From positions 23,857 through 87,856 of the IMG/VR virus record IMGVR_UViG_3300020576_004352: a stretch of DNA of 64,000 nt; one strand, written 5' to 3'. Numbering within the stretch: the first letter of the stretch is position 1; every line of letters starts with the position of its first letter. Below the pieces are notes generated by a model, which had not been told where the DNA came from, searched no databases, and was given only the letters and a program-made list of their open reading frames with translations. A program made the position numbers and the translations under genes. Below are positions 2,302 to 62,451 of the stretch, piece after piece. Origin of the DNA: a virus (Duplodnaviria; Caudoviricetes).

Positions 2302-2315
2302 TGAACCGGGGTTCA
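2302..2315. promoter_or_regulatory. Palindromic site TGAACCGGGGTTCA
   Basis: Upstream of the protease gene. Confidence 0.7.
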
Positions 2316-2323
2316 AACCGACC

Positions 2324-2926
2324 ATGAAGCGCATTCACAAAGAAGATCAAAATCAGCACTTTGTCCGCATCAAGAAACTTGATGACGAGAAGCGCATCTG
2401 CTTTGGGGAAGTCTATGCGCCTTATGTGCTGGACAGCCACGGTGATTTCATGGCCCCCGAAGACATTGAGGCAATGGCGCATCGCTTTATGCAGCTGAGC
2501 AATGTCAGTCGATCCATTGATACCAATCACAACAACCAGAGCAATGGCAGCTATCCAATCGAGAGCTTTGTTGCCCGTGAAGGTGACCCCGATTACACGC
2601 CCGGTGCGTGGGTGCTGGGTGTAAAGGTTCCCGATGATGCCGTGTGGCAGGCCATTAAAAGAGGCGATCTGAACGGCTATTCCTTTGAGGCTCTGGTTTA
2701 CAAGGTGGCCGTTATTGTCAGCGTGGACACGACGCCCGACTGCGTGGGCCAGACCGAGGATAACGAAGGACACAGCCACTTCTTTTATGTTAAGCTTGCG
2801 CTGGATGGGAAAGTTGAGGGCGGCATGACTTCGGAAGACGAAGGTCACTCCCATTTAATCAAGCGGGGCACGGCCACTGAGAAGAGCAATAATCACTCGC
2901 ACCGTATAATCATCACAGGAGAATAA
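2324..2926 (+). CDS. XkdF-like prohead serine protease
   Basis: ICFGEVYAP..DSHGD, IDTNHN, IESFVAR, GAWVLGVKV..DAVW..IK.GDLNGYSFE: PBSX XkdF pattern. Confidence 0.85.
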   Translation: MKRIHKEDQNQHFVRIKKLDDEKRICFGEVYAPYVLDSHGDFMAPEDIEAMAHRFMQLSNVSRSIDTNHNNQSNGSYPIESFVAREGDPDYTPGAWVLGVKVPDDAVWQAIKRGDLNGYSFEALVYKVAVIVSVDTTPDCVGQTEDNEGHSHFFYVKLALDGKVEGGMTSEDEGHSHLIKRGTATEKSNNHSHRIIITGE

Positions 2927-2927
2927 C

Positions 2928-4259
2928 ATGAAGCGTGTTGTCACTTCCGTTTCTCGTATCGCAAATCAACTCATCGACCCTACCCCTGAGTTCGTATCGC
3001 TGGTGGGACATGGCGCGAACCAGACACCCTTCAACGTGGTGAAAAGTGAAATTTGTGACTTCCGTAGTATTGACAACGACGGCAAACGAGGTCAGACAGA
3101 CCTTAAGAGCGTCGCCAAGGCGCGTGCATTAAACGAGGAAGATATGCCGTCACAGGCCGAAATCCATAAGGTTACACTCAGCAAATCTCGCTTTGCCAGT
3201 GATACGGACGCCAAGGCATATCTTGAAGTCAAGGGCTACACGGACTTTACTCTGGAAGCCTCGGACACTGAATTTACGGTTGCCGCCAAATCAGCAGACA
3301 GCTTTGCGGGCGAGATTAAGCCCATTGCTATTGAAGAGGGTGTAACCTTCTATGTTGGTCAACTTGCAGAAAGCGCAGAAGGACTTGAAATGAGCAAAAC
3401 CACAAAAGCCGCCAAAACCGAGGCCGTGTCTGTTTTCAAGTGCGGCGATCTGACTGCCGATGCGCTGGTAAAGAAGTACGACTACTGGGCTTCCAGTCTG
3501 TCGAGCGGAAAAACCATTCAGGAAGTCATGGCTGATGCAGCCGATGGCGGCTTCCCCGGTATGTACGAGCTGAATGATGCGTTCTGGTATGCGCTTTACA
3601 ACTGTGTGCGTGATGGCGACAAGGCAGGTATCACCACGCTTTGCGCTGAGTTCGGCCAGCTTATCGTGAAAGTCCTCGCGGCGTTTGAGAGCGCAGGCAC
3701 TAGCTCAACTGCCATGAAGGAGGCATTTATGACCAAGCCAAAGACTGAAGACACCAAGAAGTCTGATACTCCCGAAGCCGTAGTTCCTGCCGCTGAGGCG
3801 GCTGCTACCGATGTATCCCCCGCTGCTGCGGAAGGGGATGCTTCGGCTGCTGTAGAGGCTCCTGTTGAAGCCGCAGCCCCGGTAGAAGCTGGGCAGGCCG
3901 ACACCAAACAGAAGGGCGCTGATAAAGTTGCACCGCCCGTAACAGATATTGCTGCTCTGATCGCCAAGGCGGTCACTGACGCAGTTAGTCCCCTGAACGA
4001 CAGCATCAAGGCAGTTACTGCCCAAGTTGCCGAAATTCAGAAGGGCACAAGCGAAGGCTTGGCAGACCTCACTGCGAAGGTCAGCAAGGCCGGTGAGAGG
4101 GTAGCAGAGCTGGAAACGGCGCGGCAGACCCGTAAGAGCGCGGATGACGAAGGCGTCGTACCCGGAACTCAGGTGACTGAAAAGAAGAGCGAAGATCGCA
4201 TCCGCAAGGTCGACGATCACCTCTTCCAGATGTCGCTTGGTATGCGCGGCACGCTGTAG
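2928..4259 (+). CDS. Putative capsid scaffolding protein
   Basis: N-terminal FVSLVGHGANQTPF motif, Ala/Pro-rich linker, C-terminal coiled coil; between protease and capsid genes. Confidence 0.6.
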   Translation: MKRVVTSVSRIANQLIDPTPEFVSLVGHGANQTPFNVVKSEICDFRSIDNDGKRGQTDLKSVAKARALNEEDMPSQAEIHKVTLSKSRFASDTDAKAYLEVKGYTDFTLEASDTEFTVAAKSADSFAGEIKPIAIEEGVTFYVGQLAESAEGLEMSKTTKAAKTEAVSVFKCGDLTADALVKKYDYWASSLSSGKTIQEVMADAADGGFPGMYELNDAFWYALYNCVRDGDKAGITTLCAEFGQLIVKVLAAFESAGTSSTAMKEAFMTKPKTEDTKKSDTPEAVVPAAEAAATDVSPAAAEGDASAAVEAPVEAAAPVEAGQADTKQKGADKVAPPVTDIAALIAKAVTDAVSPLNDSIKAVTAQVAEIQKGTSEGLADLTAKVSKAGERVAELETARQTRKSADDEGVVPGTQVTEKKSEDRIRKVDDHLFQMSLGMRGTL

Positions 4260-4322
4260 TAGCGGCACTCAAAACACGGGGTATCCCGGAAACCAACCAA
4301 CTGTCCTTAAAGGGGTAATAAA

Positions 4323-5297
4323 ATGTCTAAGCAAGAACTCGGTCTTCCCGAAAACCTGAAGAAAGCTGATATGATCATCAGCGACCTGTCCAGTGGTGGC
4401 CTCCTGACTGTTGAGCAGTCGGACACCTTTATCCGTAACCTGATTGACCAGCCCACGCTGCTCCGCCAGATGCGTGTTCAGACGATGAACAGTCCCAGCA
4501 TGGAAATCAACAAGATGGGCTTCGGCAAGCGTATCCTTCGCTCTGCCACTGAAGCGACTGCTCTTGCGGATGCCGCTGTGGATGGCACCAGCTTTGATGC
4601 CTCGACCTCTGGTGAATACCGGGCCCGCGCTAAGCCGCAGACCTCGAAGGTCACGCTGACCACCAAGGAAGTTATCGCGGAAGTTCGCCTGTCCTACTCG
4701 ACGCTGGAAGACAGCATTGAGCGCGGTAACCTTGAGAACACCATCCTCGCCATGATCGCTGAGCGTGCTGCTCTCGATCTTGAAGAGCTGGTCATCAACG
4801 GTGATACCTCGCTCAACAACACTGATCCATATCTCGATCTGATGGACGGTGTGCTGAAGCTCTCGACTGCTCACGTGGTTGATGCGGACGGTGCGGCCCT
4901 TAACCCCACCCTGTTCAACACCACGTTGAAGGCTCTGCCGAACAAGTATCGCCGGAACCGCAATCTGATGCGCTTCTTCTCGACCCCGGATGCTGAGCAG
5001 GATTACCGTCTTGCTCTGGCCAGCCGTGGTACGGGTCTTGGTGACGCGATCCTGACCGGCAATACTCCGGTTCCCGTGTTCGGTGTTCCGCTGGTAGGTG
5101 TGGCTCTGATGCCCTCCACCTCCCTGCTCTTCACTGACCCGAAGAACCTGATTTTCGGCATCCAGCGCAATGTTCGCATTGAAAGCGAGCGCCTGATCTC
5201 CGAGCGTCAGGTCAAGATCGTCCTGACCGCCCGTATCGCTACCGCTATCGAAGAGACGGATGCGGTTGTGAAGGTCAGCAATATTGGCTCGCTGTAA
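4323..5297 (+). CDS. Major capsid protein (HK97 fold, XkdG-like)
   Basis: GGLLTVEQSDTFI, AALDLEELVINGD, LLFTDPKNLIFGIQRNVRIE; strong RBS and highly biased codon use. Confidence 0.9.
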   Translation: MSKQELGLPENLKKADMIISDLSSGGLLTVEQSDTFIRNLIDQPTLLRQMRVQTMNSPSMEINKMGFGKRILRSATEATALADAAVDGTSFDASTSGEYRARAKPQTSKVTLTTKEVIAEVRLSYSTLEDSIERGNLENTILAMIAERAALDLEELVINGDTSLNNTDPYLDLMDGVLKLSTAHVVDADGAALNPTLFNTTLKALPNKYRRNRNLMRFFSTPDAEQDYRLALASRGTGLGDAILTGNTPVPVFGVPLVGVALMPSTSLLFTDPKNLIFGIQRNVRIESERLISERQVKIVLTARIATAIEETDAVVKVSNIGSL

Positions 5298-5320
5298 TAG
5301 CGAATTGAGTTAGGGATAAA

Positions 5321-8462: not shown

Positions 8463-8663
8463 ATGAGCAAGACTAAGTTAGAAGACATGATCCTTGGTGA
8501 CAATTCCCCTGTTGACGCAGCATCGCCAGAAAGCGATACTGTAGAAATAGCGGCGGCACCCGAACAGGAAGCAGGCCCGGTTGACGAGAAGGCCAAATTG
8601 AACCCAGGTTCAGGTGGCTGCTATCGTTTCGAGGATGGCCAGTATAAAAAGATTGAGGAGTAA
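8463..8663 (+). CDS. Small acidic hypothetical protein preceding the tail tube gene
   Basis: GAGGAG RBS; ends GGCYRFEDGQYKKIEE. Confidence 0.5.
   Translation: MSKTKLEDMILGDNSPVDAASPESDTVEIAAAPEQEAGPVDEKAKLNPGSGGCYRFEDGQYKKIEE
8599..8612. promoter_or_regulatory. Palindromic site TGAACCCAGGTTCA
   Basis: Intragenic copy. Confidence 0.6.
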
Positions 8664-10141: not shown

Positions 10142-10567
10142 ATGTTACAAGCAATCAATCTCGCCAAGACCATTGAGTATCAGAGCGACCGTGATCCAGC
10201 CAAGGGCACGGAAAACGCCACGGTCTTTGTGCTCGGCGCTTTGTCGTCTCGGGTAGCGTCTACCATCCGCGACAAGTCCACCCGCTTCAGCGGTGACTTG
10301 GGTAAGGTAGAAGGCATGACCACAGAGCTCCGCATGAACGAGACTGCCTTTGAGCTTGTCCGGTTTGGCCTTCGCGGCTTCCGCAATTATCAAGCAGCTG
10401 ATGGCACCTTGGTGGAGTTCAAGACCGAGGAAGTGCAGATCGGCACGACTATCATGAAGGTGGTCGCCAAGGAAATCATGGACGTGATTGATCTTGAAAC
10501 GATCCGTGAACTGGCCGAGGCCGTTGGCAAGGTCAGTGGCTTTGAGGAAGCCGACACAAAAAAATAA
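10142..10567 (+). CDS. Tail assembly chaperone (gpG equivalent)
   Basis: Position between tube and tape measure; ends in slippery ACA AAA AAA TAA. Confidence 0.75.
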   Translation: MLQAINLAKTIEYQSDRDPAKGTENATVFVLGALSSRVASTIRDKSTRFSGDLGKVEGMTTELRMNETAFELVRFGLRGFRNYQAADGTLVEFKTEEVQIGTTIMKVVAKEIMDVIDLETIRELAEAVGKVSGFEEADTKK

Positions 10568-10935
10568 GACAGGTAGTCCTTTCTCTCATACTTCTTCCGA
10601 AGTGGGATTGCGCTACCTGCACCGACAGTCACAAGATAGAGCGCGGCTGCACCACGGACGCGCTTATTCCTCAGGAGATAGATGGGCGGCAGCTGACGCG
10701 CTGCCCCCGTCGCCCTCTGATCGACGACCCTGCTTTATTTGACGAGGCTTTTGAAGTATACTCGTGGTATAAAAAGGGGCACCTGCCGGAGAGTGGTGGG
10801 TGGGAGGAGCAATCCGCAGCATTCGTGCAGCTTGTCAGGACTATGGATTTGGCGACAAACGACGCCAATAAACTAGCCGAAAAGCGCAGAGAGCAGATGG
10901 AGAAAACCAAGATCAATAAACCGAGGGTGCGGTAA
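10558..10935 (+). CDS. -1 frameshift extension of the tail chaperone (gpGT equivalent); absent from the ORF track
   Basis: A-AAA-AAA heptamer at 10558-10564; -1 frame reads KKIRQVVLSLILLPKWDCATC...RCPRRPL...INKPRVR, stop 10933-10935 overlaps tape-measure ATG; no early start codon of its own. Confidence 0.8.
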   Translation, partial: KKIRQVVLSLILLPKWDCATCTDSHKIERGCTTDALIPQEIDGRQLTRCPRRPLIDDPALFDEAFEVYSWYKKGHLPESGGWEEQSAAFVQLVRTMDLATNDANKLAEKRREQMEKTKINKPRVR

Positions 10936-15503: not shown

Positions 15504-16154
15504 ATGCGGCAGCTTTTTTTATATGGCGAACTTGCTGAGCAGTACGGCCCGAGCTTCACTGTGCGGGCCAATACTGTTGTGGCCGCTGTGCGGCTCATGG
15601 AAGCGAATTTCAAGGGCAAGTTCATGCGGGGCATCATTGACGGCACCTATAGGGTTGTCGCCGGTAACTCCATTGATGACGAACACGCCATTCACTTTGA
15701 TAACGAGCTGGTGCGCAAAGGATTGAACCTCGGTTCAAAAGACCTCCACATCATTCCGGTTCCCGCAGGATCGGGGGGCAGCTTTCGTATTGTTCTCGGC
15801 ATAGCTCTGATAGCAGCAGCCTTCGCGTTTGCTCCGGCAGCGGTGATGAGTGCAGCAGGTACTGCCAGCACGACTGCCACCTTCGGGGTGGAATTAGGTA
15901 CGGGCTTTCTGTCTTTTCAGACGATGGCCATGTTCGGTGCGTCTCTTGCCCTTGGCGGCATCGCCTCACTGCTCACGCCTGTGGCCAAGGTGGGAGATTA
16001 CTCGAGCCGGGAGACTTCGGACGAGCGAGCCTCCTACCTGTTCAACGGCGCTGTAAACCGGGTTGAGCAGGGCGGGCCAGTGCCCCTTATCTACGGGCGG
16101 ATGCGGACAGGCAGCGTGGTTATATCTGGTGGTATCAAGAATGAGGATATTTAA
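15504..16154 (+). CDS. Tail assembly protein I (N-terminal ubiquitin-like fold)
   Basis: LYGELAEQYG, LHIIPVPAGSGG, SYLFNGAVN...QGGPVPLIYG. Confidence 0.88.
   Translation: MRQLFLYGELAEQYGPSFTVRANTVVAAVRLMEANFKGKFMRGIIDGTYRVVAGNSIDDEHAIHFDNELVRKGLNLGSKDLHIIPVPAGSGGSFRIVLGIALIAAAFAFAPAAVMSAAGTASTTATFGVELGTGFLSFQTMAMFGASLALGGIASLLTPVAKVGDYSSRETSDERASYLFNGAVNRVEQGGPVPLIYGRMRTGSVVISGGIKNEDI
15724..15737. promoter_or_regulatory. Palindromic site TGAACCTCGGTTCA
   Basis: Inside gene I. Confidence 0.6.
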
Positions 16155-16157: not shown

Positions 16158-19100
16158 ATGGATGGATCGTCTAGCCCTATGATACCTCGCCCTCAAGGCT
16201 CCGGTGGTGGCTGCTTCCGGGCGGGCACTCGCGTATCCACACTGGATGGCAGCAAGCCTATCGAGAGCCTGAAGGTAGGCGATCAGGTCTATGCCTATGA
16301 CCAACAGGGGCGGATGCGTACAGGCGAGATTTCTGAAGTCCACCAGCACGAGAATGAAGCCCTGCTGCGCATGGAGTTCTGGGGCGGTGTAATTTTCGTT
16401 ACGCCTAATCACTGGATGCAAAATTCAGCGGGCAGCTTCACTGAGGCGGGCACGCTCACCACACATGATGCGCTGGTAGACATTAGAGGCCACCTGCGCC
16501 CGATCCACAGCATCACCCCTATTGAGCCCGAGACAGTCTATAACCTAACTGTCTTGCCGCACCACACGTTCATCGCGGACGGTATTCGCGTGCATAATGG
16601 AGGCGGCGGTAAAGGCGGGGGAAGCGCCCGCGCTGCGGTAGAGGCCCCGAATACATTACGCTCGAATGCCACGGCCCGTGTGCTTGATCTGATCGGTGAA
16701 GGCCCAATTGGTGGATTGGTGAATGGTGCGCAGTCAATTTTCTTTGACGATACACCTCTCGAAAATGCTGATGGCAGCTACAATTTTAAGGGAGTAGTTT
16801 GGGATATCCGCCACGGGTATCCTGACCAAGACCCCATGTCCGGCTTTGATGAGGTGGAGGCAGAGACTACCGTTGAAACTGCCGTGACCCGTCAGCTCGG
16901 CTCCATTGTGCGGCAGGTGAGCGAGGCGGACGCAGATGCCTGCCGTATCCGTATCCGTATCCCCTCGCTTACTTTGCAGGACACCACTACGGGCGACATG
17001 AAGCCCACGAGTGTGGAGATCAAGATCGAGGTGAAACCCTCCAATGGAGAGTACCGAGATGTGACCTTCGTCTATAACGAGGTGGAGCGCACAGGACAGA
17101 CTACCACAGTCAACAATGCAGTGGGCTTCCGGCTGGTGGTGAAAAAGCGTGTGCTGGTCAAACTTAACAGCCCTTCCTCTGTGACACTGGAGGCTCGCTA
17201 CCGGAAGTCGGGTGCCGCCAGCTGGATCAGTCTGGGTGCCCGCACAGTGAGCGCGATCATTGGCAGCGTGGCCGACATTGCCACGGCTGACGGGTATATT
17301 GATGGGCAGCCTGCCTATTATCACACCTTCACCACAACATACTCGTTGCTTGATCTGGGGGCCAACTCTTATGAGATCGGACTGGTGCAGGGAGACGAGA
17401 TCGTTTCGTTTGTCGCGTATACCCGTAGCAACTTGCTGGTTGAGGGCAAGAATACCGCACCCACTGAAAAGTCATACCGGTTTGACCTTCCCGGAACCGG
17501 CCCGTGGCTGGTACGGCTTAGCCGCATAACGCCTGACAGCGACAGTGCCACCTTACAAAACCAAACCGTATGGGTGTCCTACACCACTATCATTGCTGAC
17601 AAGTTCATCTACCCGGACAGCGCATATATTGGCCTATCTGTTAATGCCTCCCTGTTCGGCAACAGCATTCCCGCCCGCGCATATGACGTATATGGGCGTG
17701 AGGTTCTGGTGCCTCTGAATTATGATCCGTTGCTGCGCATCTATACCGGCTTCTGGGATGGCACGTTCAAGCAGGCGTGGACTGATAACCCAGCATGGTG
17801 CTTTCTCGATATGCTGACCAATGACCGGTTCGGGTTGGGTGATCGTATTGATCTTGATGCAGTCGACACCGCCAAGCTCTATGAGATATCGCAGTACTGT
17901 GATGAGCTGGTGCCGGACGGCTACGGCGGATTTGAACCCCGGTTCACCTTGAACTGTGTGATTAACACACAGGCGGATGCCTACCAAGTATTGAACAGCA
18001 TGGTGTCAAACTTCTGGGGCATGGTCTACCAGTCTGCTGGGGCAGTGGCCTTCGGCATTGACGCCCCTCGTGAGGCGGACGTGATCGTGGGCCGGGCCAA
18101 CGTGGTTGATGGTGAGTTCAATTACTCGAGCTCGGGTGACCGGGCACGGCACAACTCTGTGCTGGTGACATGGAATAACCCCAACGACGGTGACCGTACC
18201 GATATCGAAGTGGTTGAGGATAACGCGGACATTTCTGCCCGTGGTCTGCGCCAGACAGACGTTTACGCCTTCGGATGTAAATCCCGTGGGCAGGCAAGCC
18301 GGTACGGAAAGCGGCTCTTGTACACTGAGAAATATGAGCAGGAGACGGTCACTTATCGCTGCGGCCTTGATCATCTGAATGTGGTGCCGGGCATGGTGAT
18401 TGGTCTTGTCGATCCCAAGGTAGCGGGAGCCGAATTTGCAGGCCGCACACTAGTTGTCGGAGGCAGCCCTATCGCATCTGAAGATGGCGGTGATATTCTG
18501 CTGGAGAATGAAAACCCGCTTCTGATGAACGATCCCACAGTGGTGACACTTGATCGGCCTGTCACTCTGGCAACGGGGCATACCTATGAACTGAATGTGG
18601 TGGACGACACAGGTGCTCTCCAGACCCGTGCTATTACCACCACGTCCGGTCAGACAGTGTCCACCTTGCAGATCAACACAGCCTTCGACCCGCAGCCCAC
18701 AGAGGGCCGCATGTGGAGCATCAGTGGCACGGATGTTGAGCCGCGCCTGTTCCGCATTACGACCATCGTTGAGGTTGAGGGTTATATGTTTGAGGTGACC
18801 GGCGTAGAGTATAACCCGGCAAAGCATGATTATATTGATCGTGACTTCAAGCTGAGCCCGGTCAATTTCAGTCGCCTGTTCTCGGGTAAGGTGCTCCCTC
18901 CCGAGAACCTTGATATTGTAGAGACGTTATTCAAAACCAACGGCGTGCTGCGCACCCGCGTAAATGTGGGCTGGAGCACGCCAACTGATACCCGAGTGAC
19001 CATATTCCGGGTACAGTACGGCCTCAGTAATGGTGGGCTCTCGCGGGAGCTGCTGACACGAGATACCTCTGTTGAGCTGGACGATCTTGAGCCGGGAACC

Positions 19101-23222: not shown

Positions 23223-23236
23223 CCGACAGGTGCTTA

Positions 23237-24131: not shown

Positions 24132-24285
24132 AGCGGTGTAGTGACTGTAGAACTGTAAAGCCTTTCTCTGAGTTTTATGCTCGAAATGACGCAGTATCAC
24201 CTACGTACCGGAGCCAGTGTAAGAAGTGTTGTTATACATATAGTTATAGATACAATAAGAATAATAAAGAAGAAAATAATGCTAG
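24128..24285 (+). pseudogene. 5' half of an interrupted HNH-like endonuclease gene
   Basis: KRCSDCRTVKPFSEFY...CKKC zinc finger; joins in frame to 28259-28577 when the insert is removed. Confidence 0.8.
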
Positions 24286-28613: not shown

Positions 28614-29216
28614 ATGAAGAAGCTCCTATCCGCATTCTTTGTCGCCCTTCTGATGTTCGGGGCTACCGCGCAGGCTGAAGAGACTTTTACCGTTGCGGCG
28701 GAAACCCCTGTGGCCACAGCAGATGCACCCGCAGTCACTGCTGGCGAGAGCGATATCGCAGTAGTGAACCCCGGTTCAAAACCGGACGTGGACACTGTGA
28801 CGGTGATCCACGGATCAAAACTGTTTGAGAGTTTGGGCGGTCTGCTCTATGCAGCTCTCGCCGGTATCGCGCTGTGGCTCTACAGCATGCTCTCGAAGAT
28901 CGCTATTTTCAACAAATTGGTGACCCGTGAACAGTATCAGAAGCTTGTTGATCCCCTGCTGGATGAGGCGGTAGCCTTTGGGGTGGGTCGCCTGAATAAG
29001 GCCGACTGGGCAGATATTGAAACCAAGAATGAAGCCCTCGGTACTGCGGTCAACTATGTGATCGATCACGGCCCTGACCTTCTCAAGAAGTTCGGCATTG
29101 GCCGTGAAGCCCTGATCCAGAAGCTCGAGGCAAAGCTGGTTGCGAATGGCTGGGATACCAAACCGGGCCAGTGGAATACGCCTACCTCCGAAACGGCACC
29201 CAAGACGAAGGTGTGA
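28614..29216 (+). CDS. Membrane protein with signal peptide, LL-H holin-like C-terminal domain
   Basis: MKKLLSAFFVALLMFGATAQA signal, TM LLYAALAGIALWLY, LDEAVAFG...AVNYV...LEAKL. Confidence 0.5.
   Translation: MKKLLSAFFVALLMFGATAQAEETFTVAAETPVATADAPAVTAGESDIAVVNPGSKPDVDTVTVIHGSKLFESLGGLLYAALAGIALWLYSMLSKIAIFNKLVTREQYQKLVDPLLDEAVAFGVGRLNKADWADIETKNEALGTAVNYVIDHGPDLLKKFGIGREALIQKLEAKLVANGWDTKPGQWNTPTSETAPKTKV
28765..28778. promoter_or_regulatory. Palindromic site TGAACCCCGGTTCA
   Basis: Inside the holin-like gene. Confidence 0.65.
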
Positions 29217-31220: not shown

Positions 31221-31234
31221 TGAACCGGGGTTCA
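31221..31234. promoter_or_regulatory. Palindromic site TGAACCGGGGTTCA
   Basis: 19 bp upstream of P1. Confidence 0.75.
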
Positions 31235-32211: not shown

Positions 32212-33870
32212 ATGACCAATGCTGAGCTGACAAGCAAAGAAAAGTTTATTGAGGATATTTCCACACTGGTGAACGCCGCCATTGGCGTTATCATTGTGCG
32301 CACCCGTGAGCCTTATGAGGTTATGACGGTGCTGCGAGAATACTCCCTGAGCACCAAGTGGCAGTTCAATCGCTGGAGCATTACTTCAGGCTTCCTGAAG
32401 TTTCCGTTGACCGATGCGACTGCGGAGCCGGTTAAGGTTGATAATACACAGCCTCCCGGTGCCGCGATTAAATACGTTGGCGACAATCAGGACGGCAACA
32501 ACTCAAGACAGATTTACGCGATGATGTGGAGCCACTTTTATAGCAAGCGCGACAATCCCATGCCTGAGTTTATTCAGCACATGGCAGACTACACAAAGCT
32601 CTTTGCCAATAAGCCAAAGCGCCTGATTATGGTGGTGCCGCCAGAATACCAAGTGCCTCCCGAGCTGCAGGACAGCGTGGTCATTGTTGACACTGACCTG
32701 CCGACGCAGCCTGAGCTGCGGGAGCTGTACGACGATGTGATGGAGCAGATTAACACGATGGGGAAGAAGGCCCTCACCTACACAGAGGAAGAGGTTGACC
32801 GCATCACTGCCGCAGGCGCTGGCATGACGCTCACGGAGTTCGATAACACACTGAGCCGGGCCCTGCGCAAATTCCGCAAAGAGCTGCCAGATATCGCAGT
32901 TGATACCTTCGTGCGCGAAATCAGCAAAACGAAAGCGGAGATTGTAAAGCGCAGTGAGGTGCTCGAGCTTATGCCTCTCGGCAACATGGACGAGGTGGGT
33001 GGGCTTGAAAACCTGAAGGAGTGGATCAGCCTGAGACGGCACGCTTACGATAAGGAGGCCCGTGATTTTGGGGTAGATCGTCCGCGAGGCGTGGCACTGC
33101 TTGGAGCCCCCGGAACGGGTAAGAGCTTGTGCGCGAAGGCCATTGCTCACGAGCTTGGCCTCCCTCTCATCCGCTTTGATATCAGCCGTATCTTCGGCAG
33201 CCTTGTCGGACAGTCAGAAGGTCGGGTGCGGGAAGCCCTCAAGCTGTGCGATGCCCTTGCGCCCTGCACGGTTCTCCTAGACGAGATCGACAAAGCCTTC
33301 GACGTGAACAGCGGGGGCGGAGACAGTGGAGTGGGCAAGCGGGTGCTTGGCGCGGTGCTCACGCACATGCAGGAGAGCGACAAGGATATCTTCTGGGTGA
33401 TGACTGCAAACCGTGTCGGTGGCCTTCCGCCAGAGCTCCTGCGCAAGGGTCGGCTGGACGAGGTGTTCTCGGTAACCACTCCCTCCGAGAAGGAGCGTGA
33501 GGCTATCTTCAAAATCCATTTGAAGAAGCGCAAGCAGGCTCCCGACCTGAAGGGGCTGGATAAGGCTGTGGAGGCGTCTAACCGCTTTGTGGGTGCTGAG
33601 ATTGAGGCGGCAGTGGCCGAGGCGGTGCTGCATGCCTACTCGAAGAACAAGGCATTGACCGCCGAGATGCTGGTGGAGCAGTTCAGGGATACCAAACCTC
33701 TCTCCGAAGCACACAAAGAGCAGTTCAGAATGATGGAGGATTGGGCTGCCGATAACGCGAGAGCCTCCAGCAAAGAGACGAGGACGCGCACTCGTGAGCG
33801 TAACCGGGTCGCGGATACCAGCTCCCGCAGCAGTGCCAGCGCGGCGCTTACTGACGATCTGGACGGGTGA
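32212..33870 (+). CDS. Ycf46/SpoVK-like AAA+ ATPase
   Basis: VGGLENLKEW, GAPGTGKS (Walker A), LLDEIDK (Walker B), TAN, PPELLRKGRLDE; ATG 32212 has GGAGA RBS. Confidence 0.92.
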   Translation: MTNAELTSKEKFIEDISTLVNAAIGVIIVRTREPYEVMTVLREYSLSTKWQFNRWSITSGFLKFPLTDATAEPVKVDNTQPPGAAIKYVGDNQDGNNSRQIYAMMWSHFYSKRDNPMPEFIQHMADYTKLFANKPKRLIMVVPPEYQVPPELQDSVVIVDTDLPTQPELRELYDDVMEQINTMGKKALTYTEEEVDRITAAGAGMTLTEFDNTLSRALRKFRKELPDIAVDTFVREISKTKAEIVKRSEVLELMPLGNMDEVGGLENLKEWISLRRHAYDKEARDFGVDRPRGVALLGAPGTGKSLCAKAIAHELGLPLIRFDISRIFGSLVGQSEGRVREALKLCDALAPCTVLLDEIDKAFDVNSGGGDSGVGKRVLGAVLTHMQESDKDIFWVMTANRVGGLPPELLRKGRLDEVFSVTTPSEKEREAIFKIHLKKRKQAPDLKGLDKAVEASNRFVGAEIEAAVAEAVLHAYSKNKALTAEMLVEQFRDTKPLSEAHKEQFRMMEDWAADNARASSKETRTRTRERNRVADTSSRSSASAALTDDLDG

Positions 33871-33881
33871 ACCCCGGTTCA
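33868..33881. promoter_or_regulatory. Palindromic site TGAACCCCGGTTCA
   Basis: Its TGA is the AAA gene stop; upstream of P3. Confidence 0.75.
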
Positions 33882-37561: not shown

Positions 37562-38118
37562 TGACTGTCGAGCAGAAGAAGGACGAGATCGCCCGCAGCA
37601 TGGTGAGCGCAGGGATAGGGAACTTTTATCACGGGGTTACGTTAGCGTCCTTCGGCTCAGCAGGTGAGCAGGTGAAATCGCGCATGAATGAACCGGGGTT
37701 CAAATCAGCGGTACTATCAGGCAGCGGATTTAACATACTCAGTACCGATCTCAAGGAATGCACCTTCCCATTTGTGGTGGCGCGGGCCTTACGTCTCGCC
37801 CGCATTGATGCGCGAGCTGTCCGCCTGATGCCCCTGCTGCGGTTTATCGAGGCCGGGCATACGGAAGACTTTGACGATATCCGGTTTGCTGAGTTTAACC
37901 GTGCACAGGCGTTGGTCATTCCGGGATTTTTTGAGCAGCTTGATGAGAAACCTTTCACGCGCAGAGAGCTGTACCGAATTGAAAACTTCCTGACCGAGAT
38001 GATGGATAACGGGTTCTCGGTCAGCGTGCAGCACTACGGCAGCCTTGACAGACAGGACTGGTTTTCGCCCCGCCTTATTGCCCGGCTGCGAGAGTGTAAT
38101 ATGGAGGTCACGATATGA
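37561..38118 (+). CDS. DnaC/IstB-like helicase loader with degenerate P-loop
   Basis: TAATG coupling; position between initiator and DnaB; overall layout DnaC-like, no GxxGxGKT. Confidence 0.5.
   Translation: MTVEQKKDEIARSMVSAGIGNFYHGVTLASFGSAGEQVKSRMNEPGFKSAVLSGSGFNILSTDLKECTFPFVVARALRLARIDARAVRLMPLLRFIEAGHTEDFDDIRFAEFNRAQALVIPGFFEQLDEKPFTRRELYRIENFLTEMMDNGFSVSVQHYGSLDRQDWFSPRLIARLRECNMEVTI
37689..37702. promoter_or_regulatory. Palindromic site TGAACCGGGGTTCA
   Basis: Inside the loader gene. Confidence 0.65.
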
Positions 38119-43104: not shown

Positions 43105-43554
43105 ATGACCCGCATTACAAAGACCGCTGTTGCCCGTGAGCGCACCCGCACGATTGACCTGACTGTTGAGGTTACGCCGGAGGAAGAGCTGCGCAAGCTG
43201 ACGGTGGCTACCTACAAGACAAACAAAGAGGCCAATGCTGCGAAGAATACCTACGAGAAAACCCGCAGCTCCCTTTTGGCAGCTATGGGAAAGCACAGCC
43301 GCAAGCATTTTGTGACCGGCGCTGTTGACCTTGGCGGTGGCGCTGTAAGCAGCCTCAAGGCTGAGGTTAAAGCCCCTGAGGGTAATGACGTTGACGTTTC
43401 CAAGCTGCGCACACTGGTGACGGATGACGTGTTTATGAAAATCATTAAGGCTACCCAATCCAGTGTTGAAGCCCATGCGGGTAAGACGGTGCTGGCGCAG
43501 TGCCTTATCCCCACAAAGGGCGAACCCAATGTTAGCGTGAAGGTGCAGAAGTGA
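43105..43554 (+). CDS. Hypothetical basic protein with N-terminal RERTRTIDL
   Basis: ATG 43105 with GGAGA RBS. Confidence 0.6.
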   Translation: MTRITKTAVARERTRTIDLTVEVTPEEELRKLTVATYKTNKEANAAKNTYEKTRSSLLAAMGKHSRKHFVTGAVDLGGGAVSSLKAEVKAPEGNDVDVSKLRTLVTDDVFMKIIKATQSSVEAHAGKTVLAQCLIPTKGEPNVSVKVQK

Positions 43555-44042
43555 GCGAGGAGGCCGACATGAAAACCAATGTTGTTATGCCCGCCGCCTT
43601 TGCCGGCCGGGCAGATGCCGAGACGCTTTCCCGTCTTCGTGAGCACGGCGTGGTGACTGGAGTTCTCGTACTCGATGATAGCGAGCTTAAAGAGCCCGAC
43701 TATGGCGAGGACACTCTCGGCATCCTGACCGAAGACGAGGCCCAGATGTACGCTGCCTATTGGGAGGCACACAAGGCCCTGAGGGACATGCAGCGGAAGG
43801 TCGGGGCGGAACTGCTGCATAGGTTGGGGGATGCTGTGGCATCACAGAAGGAGAAGGAGGGGTTTGATAAAGAGCCTCCTCTCACTGAAGGCGAGGCGCA
43901 GGAATTTCACAGAGCCCTGCGCAAGGTTGATTACCTCAAGAACCTTTTCTTCTGGGTGATTGGTGAGAAATATAACACACACGATTTTACACTTGGCGTG
44001 CGTACCAAGCGTCGCATTATTAAGGGCCGCAGAAAATGGTGA
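43551..44042 (+). CDS. Hypothetical protein
   Basis: GTGA-coupled ORF; stop codon is the TGA of a palindromic site. Confidence 0.55.
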   Translation: MSEEADMKTNVVMPAAFAGRADAETLSRLREHGVVTGVLVLDDSELKEPDYGEDTLGILTEDEAQMYAAYWEAHKALRDMQRKVGAELLHRLGDAVASQKEKEGFDKEPPLTEGEAQEFHRALRKVDYLKNLFFWVIGEKYNTHDFTLGVRTKRRIIKGRRKW

Positions 44043-44053
44043 ACCCCGGTTCA
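44040..44053. promoter_or_regulatory. Palindromic site TGAACCCCGGTTCA
   Basis: Its TGA is a stop codon; upstream of primase. Confidence 0.75.
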
Positions 44054-48280: not shown

Positions 48281-48827
48281 GCCAGTTAAGAAAAAAGAAA
48301 AGGCGAAGGTGCTGCAAGCTGACAAGGATAGACCTTGGTATAGGGGATACCTTAAGCGGCTCAACACAGCCCGCCGTACCGAGTACCGGGCCAATTCTAA
48401 GGTACGGGAGACCAAGATTGAGAAGTCGCGGCAGGCTTACCGGGACAAGGTCGGGCTGGTGCTCACGGACTGCCGTGAAAACCTTGGCCGGTTGGCAGAG
48501 ATCGGCACGGTCAGACTGGTGCACGGTCGCGGAGCTCGGGCACTACTTACCTTCACTCTGCCCGAGCTGGCCGAGGCGCTGATGGTGTCTCCCCTGTCGA
48601 TCTACCGGTGGAAGAAATCAGGGATATTCCCTGCACCATATTTCAGGATGCACTACGCCCCCAGAACGTGCGTTTACGTCGAGAAAGAGGTGCGTCTCTA
48701 CCTGAAGATTTTGGGCCCGCACCAGACCAAGGTTGCGCAGTATGGTTCGCGGCACACAGACGTGCAGCTGGCCTTATTTGCTGCCGCTGAAAAGGCGAGG
48801 TTAGCCATGAAGGGAGAAAAAGGATGA
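48273..48827 (+). CDS. MerR/excisionase-type HTH protein
   Basis: FTLPELAEALMVSPLSIYRWKKSGIFPAP. Confidence 0.6.
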   Translation: MTKPVKKKEKAKVLQADKDRPWYRGYLKRLNTARRTEYRANSKVRETKIEKSRQAYRDKVGLVLTDCRENLGRLAEIGTVRLVHGRGARALLTFTLPELAEALMVSPLSIYRWKKSGIFPAPYFRMHYAPRTCVYVEKEVRLYLKILGPHQTKVAQYGSRHTDVQLALFAAAEKARLAMKGEKG

Positions 48828-49172: not shown

Positions 49173-49186
49173 TGAACCCCGGTTCA
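49173..49186. promoter_or_regulatory. Palindromic site TGAACCCCGGTTCA
   Basis: Just upstream of the recA RBS. Confidence 0.75.
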
Positions 49187-51682: not shown

Positions 51683-52263
51683 TGAGCAAAGTATTCATTG
51701 GCATTGATGCCAGCCTATCTCGCACAGGGTTATCCTTTACTGATGGTCTTGGTCACTTTGTAAAGAGCATGACAGTATCTGCGCCAAAGGACATGCGCGG
51801 CATGCCACGGCTCGATAACCTTCTGGCTCAGCTGACCAAGATAATGGACGAGTGCCCCAATCTTGCAGGGGCGGCCATAGAGGGTTATGCCTTCGGCGTG
51901 CGTGGGGGAAGGCTTGCCGATCTGGCGGAGTGGGGCGGGCTTATCCGCATACTGCTTTATAGGCTGCGCATCCCCACTATTGTAGTACCACCAATGACCC
52001 TGAAGAAATTCCTGCACGATGGGAAGTTGGAGAAAAATCAGGTGTTGTTGCAGGTCTATAAACAATACGGACACTCTTTTGACACAGACGATGAGGCGGA
52101 TGCTTTTGTGTTGTCCGAAATGGCCCGTAGCTGGGTGCTTAGCTCTGATGATTTGCCCACCCGTAAAAAAGAGGCCTTGCAAAAAAGTTCTGTGTTGGTA
52201 TCTAAAAAACCTGTGAGAGAGCGTGAGCGCAACACAAAAAGTTTGAACCCCGGTTCAAACTAG
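51682..52263 (+). CDS. ruvC: RuvC-like Holliday junction resolvase
   Basis: IGIDASLSRTG, AIEGY, PMTLKKF, DDEADA. Confidence 0.85.
   Translation: MSKVFIGIDASLSRTGLSFTDGLGHFVKSMTVSAPKDMRGMPRLDNLLAQLTKIMDECPNLAGAAIEGYAFGVRGGRLADLAEWGGLIRILLYRLRIPTIVVPPMTLKKFLHDGKLEKNQVLLQVYKQYGHSFDTDDEADAFVLSEMARSWVLSSDDLPTRKKEALQKSSVLVSKKPVRERERNTKSLNPGSN
52244..52257. promoter_or_regulatory. Palindromic site TGAACCCCGGTTCA
   Basis: 8 bp upstream of P6. Confidence 0.75.
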
Positions 52264-55048: not shown

Positions 55049-55525
55049 ATGCCCGCAATTTTGAACCCCGGTTCACTGGCGTGTCCTATTGACGCAAACA
55101 CCCGTGCCAGATTTGCAGGAGTTGAGAAGTTTGCCCGTATAGTTGGCTATCAGGCAAGACTGGTACTCAGCCCGGACAGGAATAATCCTGACAGAGAGCA
55201 GGTACGAGTTATTTGTGTGCCAGAGCATGGCCCATATGTGGAGTTCGACGATGTGGAGCAGGCTCGCCGGACCTTTGAGCGCATGGCTTGTATTCGCCTG
55301 TGTGGTGGTGACGCAGACGATATGCTTGGCGCATACCCAGAGCCGGGAGGCAGAGCAGTTGCCGCAGCCGAGGTGCTGGTGCAGCAGTGGAGGGACAGTT
55401 TTCCCGCCCTGACGAGCTTCTCTGAGGAGGTACGAGAAATAGTCAAAGAGATGCAGAGGAACGACAAAGTTCCTGAGGAGAACAGGCACCTCCCGCGTAG
55501 AATTATAAACCTTCAGGACGATTGA
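55049..55525 (+). CDS. Hypothetical protein, C-terminal RRIINLQDD
   Basis: GGGAGG RBS. Confidence 0.55.
   Translation: MPAILNPGSLACPIDANTRARFAGVEKFARIVGYQARLVLSPDRNNPDREQVRVICVPEHGPYVEFDDVEQARRTFERMACIRLCGGDADDMLGAYPEPGGRAVAAAEVLVQQWRDSFPALTSFSEEVREIVKEMQRNDKVPEENRHLPRRIINLQDD
55062..55075. promoter_or_regulatory. Palindromic site TGAACCCCGGTTCA
   Basis: At a gene start. Confidence 0.7.
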
Positions 55526-57365: not shown

Positions 57366-57764
57366 ATGAAAACCATAGCGTTTATGCTGATCCTGTTCGG
57401 GCTCTCTGCATGTACTGGATTTCCCGAGAGCGCAGCTAACTCCCAGCCCGGCTGGAGCTGCACCCCTGACGGGGCTTGCTGGCCCTCTGATTTTCCTCTG
57501 ACAAAACAATACAGGTATAAGTGGGTAGCTGACACTGATGCGGTGGCGGAGATTTGCCTGAAGACAAACAGTCCTCACCCCTACGCATGTATCCTCATGA
57601 AGGACACACCTCATCCGGTGATTGTTGTGCCGGAGCGGTTTACTCCTGCCCAGCAGGCATGTGGGTGGAATGTAGCAGATACGGTAAGGCACGAAGAAGG
57701 GCACGGTGAAGGCGTTACCGTGCATCACAAGATCAGGGCGGAGGCGTGTAATGCAGGGAGTTGA
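57366..57764 (+). CDS. Lipoprotein with HExxH motif
   Basis: MKTIAFMLILFGLSA/C lipobox; TVRHEEGHGE; several Cys. Confidence 0.65.
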   Translation: MKTIAFMLILFGLSACTGFPESAANSQPGWSCTPDGACWPSDFPLTKQYRYKWVADTDAVAEICLKTNSPHPYACILMKDTPHPVIVVPERFTPAQQACGWNVADTVRHEEGHGEGVTVHHKIRAEACNAGS

Positions 57765-58152
57765 GGGCGGTTGGACAAAGGATGAGGCCACAAAATTGCG
57801 CCAGCTCTGGGAGGGCGGCAAGACAGCCAACGAGATAGCGATAGCACTGGCCACAGGAAAGAGCCGGAATGCCGTGATCGGCAAGCTCTACCGGATGAAG
57901 TTGACCGGGAGCAATGCATCGCCCGCCCGTAAACAGAGAAAGAAGATGAAGAAGCTTCAGCCCTTCGGGGTGGAGTTGATCCGGTCTTTCGACTGCTGTC
58001 AGTGGATAGACGGGGATGGGCGCAGTCGCGTATTCTGCGACGATGCTGCGGTTAAGGGCAAGCCATACTGCGCGGCCCACAACAGCCGGGCCTACGTTAA
58101 GCTTGACCCGAAGAAAGACCCGACTAACCCACGGAGGAAGTTACCAGAATGA
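57751..58152 (+). CDS. gcrA: GcrA-like cell-cycle transcription regulator
   Basis: WTKDEATKLRQLWEGGKTANEIA...SRNAVIGKLYRMKL; C-terminal CQWIDGD...FC...KGKPYCAAHNSRAY. Confidence 0.88.
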   Translation: MQGVEGGWTKDEATKLRQLWEGGKTANEIAIALATGKSRNAVIGKLYRMKLTGSNASPARKQRKKMKKLQPFGVELIRSFDCCQWIDGDGRSRVFCDDAAVKGKPYCAAHNSRAYVKLDPKKDPTNPRRKLPE

Positions 58153-58388
58153 ATTTGATTGACGAGGTCGTGGAGTGCATCCGGTCAGCTGCTTATATAG
58201 AGGGTATCATACGACCTGATGCCCGGCTCTCTGACCTCCCTAACGTGGACAGCCTCACGTTATTTGAGATTAAGTTGCGTCTAGAGGAGCAGCTGAACGT
58301 CGAGCTAGACGACGCGGATATGGAGAATGGCACCACGGCCCGCGAGCTGGCCAGAATAATTCAGCAAAAGAGGCAAAATATCGCTTGA
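58149..58388 (+). CDS. Acyl carrier protein homologue
   Basis: 79 aa, acidic, L.DL..VDSL..FEI...LEEQLNVELDD...TT.RELA; DSL phosphopantetheine site. Confidence 0.8.
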   Translation: MNLIDEVVECIRSAAYIEGIIRPDARLSDLPNVDSLTLFEIKLRLEEQLNVELDDADMENGTTARELARIIQQKRQNIA

Positions 58389-59007: not shown

Positions 59008-59264
59008 TGGATGGGATGCCAGCGTTTGATTGGGCGGACGATAAACAGGCCGAGACGGTGCGGGCCTGCCGCCGATATCTGGGGATGAGCTACTCAGAGT
59101 TTGCCCGTGCCCTTGGCCTTGCCGGAGACGGTGCCCGCCATGTGCGGCGCTGGGAAGGCGGTGAGCGCGTGGTCAAGCCTGGTAACCAGCTGAAGATTGA
59201 AGAGATGGTCAAGGATGCCTGCCTTGAAGGTGCCCAGTCCGATTACCCTCGGCAGTATGAATGA
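59004..59264 (+). CDS. XRE-family HTH protein
   Basis: VRACRRYLGMSYSEFARALGL...HVRRWEGGER. Confidence 0.7.
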   Translation: MMDGMPAFDWADDKQAETVRACRRYLGMSYSEFARALGLAGDGARHVRRWEGGERVVKPGNQLKIEEMVKDACLEGAQSDYPRQYE

Positions 59265-59275
59265 ACCCCGGTTCA
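59262..59275. promoter_or_regulatory. Palindromic site TGAACCCCGGTTCA
   Basis: Its TGA is the XRE gene stop. Confidence 0.7.
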
Positions 59276-59294: not shown

Positions 59295-59693
59295 ATGGAT
59301 GTTAAGATACCCGAGATGGTTGGTGTGGTGGAAGGCCCTAAAGACAAGCCCGGCGGGGACTTCTGGTGCGTGGTTGCCTATATGGACTACACCAATATCC
59401 CCGACTACGGAATGCCTGCGTATACCAATTGCTGCGCTATCATGTTGCAGAGTGACCAGTGTGCCATGGTGGACTTGCTGCCCGAGCTGGATTTCAGTGA
59501 GTGTGGCGGGGATATGAGCTGGGCAAAGGGACGACCCTCCGGCCTGTATCGCTTACAGCTGTCTTCCCGTTCTCTGGCTAACCACGAAGGGGTAGTAGAC
59601 GATGTGGAGATTTGGGCCAGCCGTGTGGACTGCCTTTGCAGCACGGGGCTGCCGCTGGCCAAGATCGATCTTGAAACCGGTTTCATTCAGTAG
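59295..59693 (+). CDS. Hypothetical protein
   Basis: AGGAG RBS, 132 aa. Confidence 0.5.
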   Translation: MDVKIPEMVGVVEGPKDKPGGDFWCVVAYMDYTNIPDYGMPAYTNCCAIMLQSDQCAMVDLLPELDFSECGGDMSWAKGRPSGLYRLQLSSRSLANHEGVVDDVEIWASRVDCLCSTGLPLAKIDLETGFIQ

Positions 59694-61498: not shown

Positions 61499-61520
61499 GA
61501 AAATGTAATCGCTTTTATCT

Positions 61521-61620
61521 GTCCCTACCTCGTTTGCTTCCAAGTTGCTCCGGTAGGGGCTCCTCGTTACCCTTCTCGACCCTTCTCGTTTGCCTCGGTA
61601 GGGGCTTCCAAGTTGCCTGT
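61521..61620. repeat. Non-coding mosaic of four short duplicated motifs
   Basis: CTCGTTTGC, CTTCCAAGTTGC, CGGTAGGGGCT and ACCCTTCTCG each occur twice. Confidence 0.7.
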
Positions 61621-61674
61621 ACGGTGCCAGCTGCACAGGAAAAATGTTTAACTTCGACCCGGAGGAAAGAAACT

Positions 61675-61911
61675 ATGTTGTTGACTATTTATGTGGTGGG
61701 ACTGCTTGCGACGGCCCTTATGTGCGGCATCCAGCGGAGCATAGCCGAGGAGCCCATGAAGCGGTGGGAGGCGTGGTTTGCTGCGCTGGTGTGGCCGCTG
61801 TGGTTTGTGGTGGCAGGTGTCACGGCGGTTCTGCTGGGCGCGTCTGTGCTGGCACTGATCGCGGTGCGTTGGGCTATCCGGGCGGTGAAGCATGTAGGAG
61901 GTCTGACATGA
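61675..61911 (+). CDS. Small membrane protein
   Basis: GGAGG RBS; two hydrophobic segments. Confidence 0.55.
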   Translation: MLLTIYVVGLLATALMCGIQRSIAEEPMKRWEAWFAALVWPLWFVVAGVTAVLLGASVLALIAVRWAIRAVKHVGGLT

Positions 61912-62279
61912 CCACACAGGTGCGGGCGATTGTGCTCAGCAAGAACTTCTTTTATCTGTCCGGGGCGAAGCTGGCCGGGGTTATGATCCTGCTGATCGTA
62001 ACGGGAGGCGCTGCGCTGGGTGTATCAGAGATGTGGCATGACTGGCGGAGGGTGTTCCTTTACACAAACCTTATATGCATCGCGACGACGCTGACCAGTA
62101 TTGTGGAGTGGTCGCTGCGGATGTTTCGTCTCTGGGAGTTCTGGCGAGAAGCCACGCGAAGAGCACAACGGCGTCAATTTGTGCAAACACTGCTTGAGTA
62201 CCTTAAAGAGGGGAGAATGGATGAGAATGGAGACTGTAACTGTGCAAACTACCGTGCCAGACGTGGCGAGCGTGATTGA
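61908..62279 (+). CDS. Membrane protein (2 TM)
   Basis: ATGA overlap; hydrophobic helices. Confidence 0.5.
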   Translation: MTTQVRAIVLSKNFFYLSGAKLAGVMILLIVTGGAALGVSEMWHDWRRVFLYTNLICIATTLTSIVEWSLRMFRLWEFWREATRRAQRRQFVQTLLEYLKEGRMDENGDCNCANYRARRGERD

Positions 62280-62406
62280 GGTTGGATCGGAGGCAGGGGA
62301 TACCCTGATCTCTGTGGTGGGCGTACCGTGGGGCTATATTAACCCAGCGGCCCCGGTACTGACCGAAGAGGAGCTCAGTACCTCCTATATAGAGGGAGAG
62401 TGTTAA
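62221..62406 (+). CDS. Small hypothetical protein (start uncertain)
   Basis: Fills gap to next promoter; overlaps upstream gene. Confidence 0.35.
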   Translation: MRMETVTVQTTVPDVASVIEVGSEAGDTLISVVGVPWGYINPAAPVLTEEELSTSYIEGEC

Positions 62407-62437
62407 TTTTAACCAAGAGCCGGGGCGCAATCTTTTT

Positions 62438-62451
62438 TGAACCCCGGTTCA
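62438..62451. promoter_or_regulatory. Palindromic site TGAACCCCGGTTCA
   Basis: 18 bp upstream of P9. Confidence 0.75.

Follow-up and report, generated by a model that had tools for sequence, protein, structure and literature searches.

Evenly spaced palindromes and a candidate ParB/KorB-like reader in a tailed phage genome

The DNA analysed here (the window) is a 64,000-nucleotide (nt) stretch from a tailed phage (Duplodnaviria; Caudoviricetes), namely bases 23857–87856 of the 87,856-bp IMG/VR contig IMGVR_UViG_3300020576_004352, which is estimated to be 81% complete. Its genes lie almost all on the + strand, and dispersed between and within them are near-identical copies of a 14-bp palindrome, TGAACC-NN-GGTTCA. 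This palindrome is the subject of our study, together with a protein of 406 amino acids (aa) encoded in the window, which we propose as its candidate reader. Positions are those of the window unless another sequence is named.

Copies and placement of the palindrome

Exact matches to TGAACC-NN-GGTTCA number 14 in the window, against none in 100 dinucleotide-preserving shuffles, and they stand where an earlier note, made from the letters of the window, had placed its 14 copies. As that note had also counted, 12 have a CC or GG centre (9 CC and 3 GG); the other two have CA and TC. The note had proposed extending the motif scan to the full genome and to relatives, and the whole contig proves to hold 22 copies. 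Nineteen of these are exactly TGAACCCCGGTTCA or its complement, and the remaining three deviate from TGAACCCCGGTTCA at the 2-bp centre alone, with one centre mismatch each. Near-misses in the contig come to one variant with two mismatches, with three-mismatch variants at background level. The motif is all-or-none, in contrast to ordinary degenerate operators. Around the 14-mer there is a preference for TT...AA and no longer repeat unit; the flanks are otherwise unrelated, and we found none of the features expected of a mobile element (a conserved unit beyond the core, terminal repeats or target duplications).

The copies are strongly biased towards gene boundaries, with 12 of the 22 not wholly inside a gene compared with 10.5% expected (P = 4e-7). 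Three supply, through their TGA, the stop codon of the upstream open reading frame (ORF), and they are the three for which this had been claimed (33868, 44040 and 59262); those at 2302, 44040, 49173 and 59262 lie a few bases 5′ of ribosome-binding sites. Other copies do lie deep in coding sequence, as had been noted for 15724, 17933, 28765 and 37689. The ten intragenic sites of the contig occupy both of the frames that are open to a word beginning with TGA, seven encoding L/V-N-P/L-G-S and three E-P-R/G-F; because two reading frames are used, it is the DNA that is conserved and not the peptide. CC centres outnumber GG centres by 13 to 6 across the contig and by 6 to 5 among intergenic copies, and there is no convincing link between site orientation and the direction of transcription in this phage.

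Spacing along the genome is more even than chance would give. The mean gap is 4.0 kb with a coefficient of variation (CV) of 0.53, and the smallest gap, 1,635 bp, was matched by none of 20,000 random placements. Two relatives described below, HJ05 and DLP5, have CVs of 0.37 and 0.47, and in all three phages the evenness is significant against random placement (P ≤ 0.002).

We predicted 14 sigma-70-like promoters in the contig, which share a near-perfect TTGACA box and, between it and the −10 box, a conserved spacer (TTGACA-AAAAAACTGTTA...TA). The conserved spacer AAAAAACTGTTA suggests a second factor or recent duplication. Six of the 14 have a palindrome upstream, its centre 16.5, 26.5, 27.5, 28.5, 37.5 or 48.5 bp from the start of the −35 box. 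The earlier note had described some copies as flanking promoters, and those at 31221, 33868, 52244 and 62438 do sit 16–49 bp 5′ of a −35 box of this family. For a helical period of 10.5 bp, the six promoter-proximal sites fall on the same side of the DNA (R = 0.93, P ~0.001). At two terminator–promoter junctions (31207–31245 and 62405–62465) one half of the palindrome base-pairs with an upstream arm, CCCCGG or CCGGGG. This arm has switched together with the CC or GG orientation of the centre, which preserves a terminator-like hairpin before the T-run.

Table 1. Palindrome copies, conserved-family promoters and the candidate reader gene in the window
Feature	Position	Strand	Context
Palindrome, GG centre	2302..2315		Intergenic; 8 nt 5′ of prohead protease/scaffold-like gene; DLP5 orthologue preceded by DLP5's own palindrome
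Palindrome, CA centre	8599..8612		Within 66-aa ORF, encodes L-N-P-G-S; orthologous site in L046 has arms 12/12, flanks diverged
Palindrome, TC centre	15724..15737		Within 216-aa tail gene; orthologous site kept in L046
Palindrome	17933..17946		Deep in 1498-aa tail-fibre gene; frame 2, E-P-R-F
Palindrome	28765..28778		Within 200-aa gene
Palindrome	31221..31234		Past the late region; in terminator-like hairpin with T-run; centre 27.5 bp 5′ of −35 box of conserved promoter
Palindrome	33868..33881		TGA is stop of AAA-ATPase gene; centre 48.5 bp 5′ of conserved promoter
Palindrome, GG centre	37689..37702		Within 188-aa gene downstream of RepO-like gene
Palindrome	44040..44053		TGA is stop of ORF 43551–44042; primase gene 27 nt on
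Palindrome	49173..49186		Intergenic; adjoins ribosome site of RecA/UvsX gene, 5′ side
Palindrome	52244..52257		Last 7 codons of RuvC-like gene; centre 16.5 bp 5′ of −35 box of the candidate reader gene's promoter
Candidate reader protein, 406 aa	52339..53559	+	N-terminal SH3/Tudor/KOW-like barrel; acidic, Ala-Lys-rich linker; ParB/KorB-type helix-turn-helix domain ~163–297; without CTPase domain (model)
Palindrome	55062..55075		First codons of 158-aa ORF
Palindrome	59262..59275		TGA is stop of 90-aa weak-helix-turn-helix gene; next gene 19 nt on
Palindrome	62438..62451		In terminator-like hairpin with T-run; centre 26.5 bp 5′ of conserved promoter
Predicted promoters of the conserved family	31255, 32148, 33923, 43039, 45104, 52267, 54525, 58385, 61491, 62471		4 more upstream of the window

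Private palindromes in related phages

A nucleotide search against cultured phages gave no near relative. The cultured phage most similar in its proteins is Aeromonas phage HJ05, which has some 30 genes in common with this one at 25–55% identity. Related phages have palindromes of their own, built on the 6+2+6 plan seen here. In HJ05 the TGAACC motif is absent, and the genome instead has 16 evenly spaced copies of TGCAAC-NN-GTTGCA and about nine further copies with TGAAAC as the left half. Stenotrophomonas phage DLP5 has 27 copies of TGCAAT-NN-ATTGCA, and TGCAAC arms recur in Rhizobium phage L338C and in several IMG/VR contigs. Other arm types among the relatives are TGCAAG, TGCAGC, TGCAGG, TGCAGA, TGAAAT, TCCAAT, TGCACT, GCACAC/GTGTGC and CGACCC/GGGTCG; the TGAACC arms of this phage are common to two relatives (L046 and L199). 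Literature searches returned no description of these palindromes in HJ05, DLP5, DLP3 or L338C. The phenomenon extends over a broad group of 80–110-kb siphoviruses of Proteobacteria, including the cultured HJ05, DLP5 and L338C.

Some details of these relatives concern orientation and variant arms. In HJ05 (L163/L005) the variant half TGAAAC occurs only as the 5′ half with respect to the coding strand, without a mirrored case (5372, 17198, 48502, 58816, 62294, 67009, 77748 and others), and in DLP5 CA centres outnumber TG centres by 19 to 7, an orientation bias that the intergenic sites of our phage lack. The variant palindrome reported earlier at 59672 of the window is real and occurs once: positions 59672–59685 hold one perfect palindrome, TGAAACCGGTTTCA, the arms of which are the variant half-site used by HJ05.

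Differing palindromes occupy corresponding places in deeply diverged genomes. The 3′ end of the RuvC-like gene, just 5′ of the 406-aa gene, holds a palindrome in this phage (52244), in HJ05 (71652) and in DLP5 (47683), each of a different sequence. A palindrome follows the AAA-ATPase gene in both this phage and HJ05 (HJ05's own, 37 bp past the gene), and the protease gene is preceded by palindromes of differing sequence in this phage and DLP5.

Scanning IMG/VR for the exact motif gave chiefly chance single matches, and the only related contig among them was 3300014205_000771 (L046). This closest relative is collinear with 26.4–40.7 kb of our contig at 65–70% nucleotide identity. Of the three sites in L046, two are the orthologues of those at 8599 and 15724, and in both the arms are identical at 12 of 12 positions, including synonymous codon positions, with differing centres and flanks that are about 60% identical; the third site has no counterpart in this phage. 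The earlier note had held that relatives keeping the amino acids and not the DNA palindrome would speak against a binding site, and the opposite was found. The palindrome is real and under selection.

We also tried DNA polymerase as a marker of the clade. None of the 48 loci found through it has a dispersed palindrome, and thus DNA polymerase does not define the clade.

A candidate reader and its possible roles

The 406-aa protein closes a replication and recombination module of conserved order: DnaB, DNA polymerase, primase, a 427-aa protein, a superfamily 2 (SF2) helicase, a MerR/HTH_17-like protein, a 113-aa protein, RecA/UvsX, two resolvases with a Cas4-like exonuclease between them and the 406-aa protein itself. 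Its sole match in PHROGs is phrog_17202, the function of which is not annotated. Modelled with AlphaFold2, the protein has an SH3/Tudor/KOW-like barrel at the N terminus, a disordered middle that is acidic and Ala-Lys-rich, and a helical DNA-binding domain at residues ~163–297 (predicted local distance difference test score, pLDDT, 93.5 when folded alone). The top VIA matches of this predicted domain are ParB–parS 6s6h (Z 7.5, 99 residues aligned), KorB 8qa8 (Z 7.4) and 1r71 (Z 6.8, 95/114), followed by Spo0J, VirB, P1 ParB and SopB. Foldseek returns ParB and Noc at a probability of 0.85–0.97, and structure neighbours in the Atlas include ParB_N+HTH_ParB proteins at a template modelling (TM) score of 0.62, as well as canonical ParB, Plasmid_parti_N and DUF3102 proteins. 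The ParB-type helical helix-turn-helix (HTH) fold is recognized at the fold level only, with moderate Z scores. Pfam gave no match in the protein at E ≤ 0.01, a profile search against PDB sequences gave nothing relevant, and neither sequence-profile membership (HTH_ParB, KorB or PDB relatives) nor a ParB_N CTPase/clamp domain was found in the polypeptide. Given the moderate Z scores, the lack of a family profile and the lack of a CTPase domain, we therefore call the protein ParB-like in fold only. The homologues in DLP5 and HJ05 are gp066 and gp88, respectively. The family is very large, with 7,917 clusters at E ≤ 0.001 and 1,543 at E ≤ 1e-30 (clusters at 50% identity).

Covariation between sites and proteins points to the same protein. 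We used 64 loci in which both a confident palindrome and a 406-aa homologue were assigned, and numbered the half-site T−7 G−6 x−5 A−4 x−3 x−2 x−1, followed by the dyad. Positions −3 and −2 are the ones that set the TGAACC of this phage apart from the TGCAAT and TGCAAC of relatives. The −3 base is C in nine loci (this phage, L199/L269, L210, L206, L189, L190, L241 and L242) and A or G in the other 55. Residue 257, two residues past an invariant GWTK (motif GWTKxR), is Arg in all nine loci with C at −3 and in none of the other 55; it is the sole zero-error column among ~230, the runner-up having five errors. On the tree, both traits change seven times, and all seven independent pairs are concordant. 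As controls we examined seven families from the same loci (MerR-like, RecA, 113-aa, exonuclease, helicase, resolvase and 427-aa; ~1,650 columns), for which the best columns have 3–6 errors for the −3 base, so shared ancestry alone does not yield such a column. At −2, the seven loci with C have Arg (six loci) or Lys (one) at residue 283, compared with none of the 49 others; where −2 is T, this residue is chiefly Val, Thr or Ala, and where it is a purine, chiefly Tyr. Residues 257 and 283 both lie in helices after the HTH. From this pattern, Arg257 is the probable reader of the C:G pair that lies 2.5 bp from the dyad, through its G, and Arg283 that of the next base pair; for arginine, recognition of the G in a C:G pair makes chemical sense.

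The reader gene is itself often preceded by a site. In 27 of 50 loci, spanning seven motif types, a palindrome of the phage's own type lies 5′ of this gene, mostly at 60–145 bp, compared with ~17% expected (P = 3e-9, with relatedness uncorrected), which suggests autoregulation. The earlier note had listed the protein at 52339 first among possible binding proteins, and both its predicted fold and the motif covariation support that choice.

We cautiously favour, from the sequence evidence above, the reading that the palindromes and the 406-aa ParB/KorB-like protein form a genome-wide docking system. The phage would encode a DNA-binding protein of two-fold symmetry that docks on TGAACC-CC-GGTTCA, and the sites together would make up the system; the reader would be the 406-aa protein, with a ParB/KorB-type HTH and without a CTPase clamp, and its SH3-like barrel may dimerise it. 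With less confidence, we suggest that the bound protein works in the manner of KorB on RK2, regulating transcription units globally or insulating them, because six sites lie on one helix face 5′ of −35 boxes, including that of the reader's own promoter, and other sites stand at the ends of operons. The protein may in addition mark or organise the chromosome of the phage.

Several points weigh against this reading. The half-site register was picked after the data had been seen, and the motifs of L187, L189, L190, L200 and L242 were assigned by hand. When only well-supported branches are counted, four of four independent pairs are concordant, an underpowered comparison (sign test, p = 0.125). 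Covariation at −2 is the weaker evidence and is not peculiar to this protein, because columns of the MerR-like and helicase families also reach one error. The structural match is middling, with Z at most 7.5, a value reachable by chance for helical domains, and no ParB-family profile match; and the functional part is thin, built on site positions relative to predicted promoters. Furthermore, seven loci have a reader homologue and no detectable dispersed palindrome in ~20 kb each.

These seven loci, L205 (IMGVR_UViG_3300025875_000005) and six others, have homologues of both the ParB-fold and the MerR-like protein. L205 repeats an extended ribosome site, CCAAGGAGTGG, instead. Closer relatives (P0003–P0006) show 73–89% identity.

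The docking sites may also have a different phage reader, either the MerR/excisionase-like HTH protein (184 aa, 48273–48827) that lies between the SF2 helicase and RecA/UvsX, or a protein outside the compared regions; this too counts against our assignment, and we consider it unlikely but worth keeping in view. MerR-type dimers bind dyads of this size, the MerR-like gene is one of the core genes of this conserved module, in HJ05 and DLP5 as in the present phage and in many IMG/VR relatives, and its columns reach one error for the −2 base. Yet no column of the family tracks the −3 base (the best has three errors, 49 loci), the putative recognition helix is similar across differing motif types, and the protein is present also in loci that lack palindromes. 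For want of −3 covariation we set it aside as the reader. A MerR-type promoter arrangement, in which the palindrome would overlap a −35 box followed by a long spacer, was rejected because no −10 box recurred consistently. Among other candidates, the ParB_N proteins encoded upstream of terminase were rejected as a heterogeneous set with one to three paralogues or methylase fusions, of which this phage has a methylase fusion only. A screen for presence or absence of gene families around RecA found none that separates loci with palindromes from those without.

A second alternative accepts a ParB-type reader and assigns it another task, in which the sites would be centromere-like parS sites and the ParB-fold protein would gather the genome for segregation of a plasmid prophage and not for transcription control. 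N15 and P1 provide precedents for phage partition sites. The predicted fold of the reader agrees with this, and the relative DLP5 is temperate and maintained as a phagemid (PMC5834331; PMC7326821). Against it, the 22–31 sites per genome are evenly dispersed and not few and clustered, six of those in this phage are phased with promoters, and the reader lacks an N-terminal domain of the CTPase or ParA-interacting kind. The contig has a single ParB_N match, which forms part of a fusion with an N6/N4 DNA methylase (contig 10559–11878, outside the window), and no ParA was seen among ~50 scanned proteins of a contig that is 81% complete and has some ORFs outside the scan. We regard partition as distinctly improbable.

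It is very improbable that the motif acts as RNA or single-stranded DNA, forming at gene junctions a hairpin that serves the processing or stability of mRNA, termination or the control of translation. Many sites do lie just 5′ of ribosome-binding sites or at stop codons, two are within terminator-like hairpins followed by T-runs, and several HJ05 sites follow intrinsic terminators. The hairpin itself, however, has a 5-bp stem, a 4-nt loop and −2.5 kcal/mol, and in many contexts lies outside the local minimum-energy fold; with so weak a stem, and a T-run after only 2 of 22 copies, the copies do not resemble intrinsic terminators or structured RNAs. Ten sites are intragenic and both orientations occur, what is conserved within each genome is sequence identity and not merely pairing, and the HJ05 variant sites are mismatched in the would-be stem. 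We would be similarly surprised if the copies were selfish or by-product repeats without phage function (miniature mobile elements, homing or nicking targets, or words related to restriction–modification), for although the window has a captured restriction–modification pair and HNH and LAGLIDADG genes, and all-or-none conservation is typical of enzyme recognition sites too, the 14-mer has no conserved flank, target duplication or longer unit, its even spacing and its orthologous positions with changed sequence across deeply diverged phages argue for selection, and covariation with a DNA-binding protein is unexpected for a by-product. A nicking or methylation target is possible as an added layer on docking sites.

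The earlier note had inferred a genome-wide protein-binding system and not a simple operator, and the private palindromes, the L046 arms, the even spacing and the covariation of −3 with Arg257 support this, with the role still a suggestion from sequence. Among the options that it offered, sites like parS or KorB operators fit best; directional stoperators fit less well because the intergenic sites lack orientation (6 CC versus 5 GG).

A broader proposal goes further, and we advance it tentatively, with more doubt than the docking system itself. The reader may belong to a very large family that combines a CTPase-less ParB-type domain with an SH3-like barrel, in which each member would read a private 12–16-bp palindrome placed every 3–4 kb and single residues would retune specificity (for example, Arg257 with G at −3). 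Tailed phages would then have a widespread, undescribed means of marking, insulating or silencing their chromosome and of distinguishing it from those of relatives. Should the 406-aa protein prove to be the reader, it would constitute a new architecture in the ParB superfamily, without the clamp domain, help to explain how long gene arrays on one strand are organised or insulated in large phages, and offer a natural set of orthogonal protein–site pairs.

Four further features of the contig are recorded here. Three tandem 22-bp iterons (AATGGGGGGTGCAAATCTTGCC-like) at 36689–36754 lie within the RepO-like gene (36254–37561) and are probably a lambda-type replication origin. A 203-bp direct repeat (62632–62834 and 63035–63237; 99% identity, 403 bp apart) is found close to the contig's right end. 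Positions 57706–58152 encode a GcrA-like protein (Pfam E = 2.6e-14), followed at 58149–58388 by an acyl-carrier-like protein (PP-binding). The 939-aa portal protein (contig 21959–24778, window up to 922) has a LAGLIDADG-type insertion that is intein-like in appearance.

Comparison with known systems

Dispersed sites read by a single phage protein are familiar from the stoperators of Cluster A mycobacteriophages, in which short, near-identical sites, dozens of them, lie across the early and late genes, mainly in the small gaps between genes, and are bound by the L5 gp71 repressor, which silences the whole genome (PMC4351075). The palindromes of this phage likewise include many near-identical sites in short intergenic gaps. 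Stoperators are asymmetric and oriented with transcription, whereas the sites here are palindromic, with an asymmetry confined to the 2-bp centre and near balance in its intergenic orientation, and the candidate reader is predicted to have a ParB-type fold and not that of an L5-type repressor.

The modelled DNA-binding domain also invites comparison with ParB–parS and with Noc and its binding sites (NBS), given its matches to 6s6h, 6y93 and 7ng0. ParB and Noc sites are palindromes of 14–16 bp, and in Noc a few residues switch specificity and many sites are dispersed. The candidate reader differs in lacking both a CTP-binding domain and a peptide for membrane targeting or for interaction with ParA, and in its long acidic, Ala-Lys-rich linkers, and the phage sites are not clustered near an origin.

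By analogy, the closest mechanistic parallel is KorB with its OB operators on the IncP-1 plasmid RK2/RP4, and the closest published phage phenomenon is the 17-bp repeat of Cluster O (PMC11790492; PMC4351075). KorB–OB shares with this phage near-identical palindromes dispersed over the whole replicon, and KorB shares, as far as the model goes, the DNA-binding fold of the 406-aa protein (1r71 and 8qa8 are among its top matches). The specificity residues of KorB are probably Thr211 and Arg240. Some OB operators lie 4–10 bp and others 45 to >1,000 bp 5′ of their target promoters (PMC11790492). The titles of Delbruck 2002 and Khare 2004, as cited in PMC5577506, describe an SH3-like domain of KorB for dimerisation and a specificity that comes from contacts outside the HTH; as far as those titles go, the covarying residues 257 and 283 of this phage, also in helices after the HTH, are a likeness. 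The phage protein differs in that it has no CTPase/clamp N-terminal domain, its barrel is N-terminal and not C-terminal, and it has no membership of the family at the sequence level; nor was a KorA or IncC partner seen in the phage. The sites differ as well, being 6+2+6 (14 bp), present in 22–31 copies, evenly spaced and about half intragenic, and the replicon is a tailed phage and not a plasmid.

Dispersed invariant palindromes in phages were known before, without a reader or function, and the Cluster O mycobacteriophages are an example: their 17-bp TGTTCGG-N3-CCGAACA occurs in >30 dispersed copies, and its reader and function are not known (Cresawn et al. 2015, PMC4351075). The palindromes described here have the same general form, with tens of copies across the genome, invariant arms and a part of the copies intragenic, a likeness that defines a descriptive class and not a homologous family. 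In both, the centre is variable, many copies are intergenic (about one-third of Cluster O copies are coding) and orientation has no clear meaning (PMC4351075). The two differ in sequence, arm length and host phylum; no reader or covariation was reported for Cluster O, whereas here each relative has a private version of the palindrome, accompanied by a concrete candidate reader and a proposed rule of one residue for one base that is directly testable.

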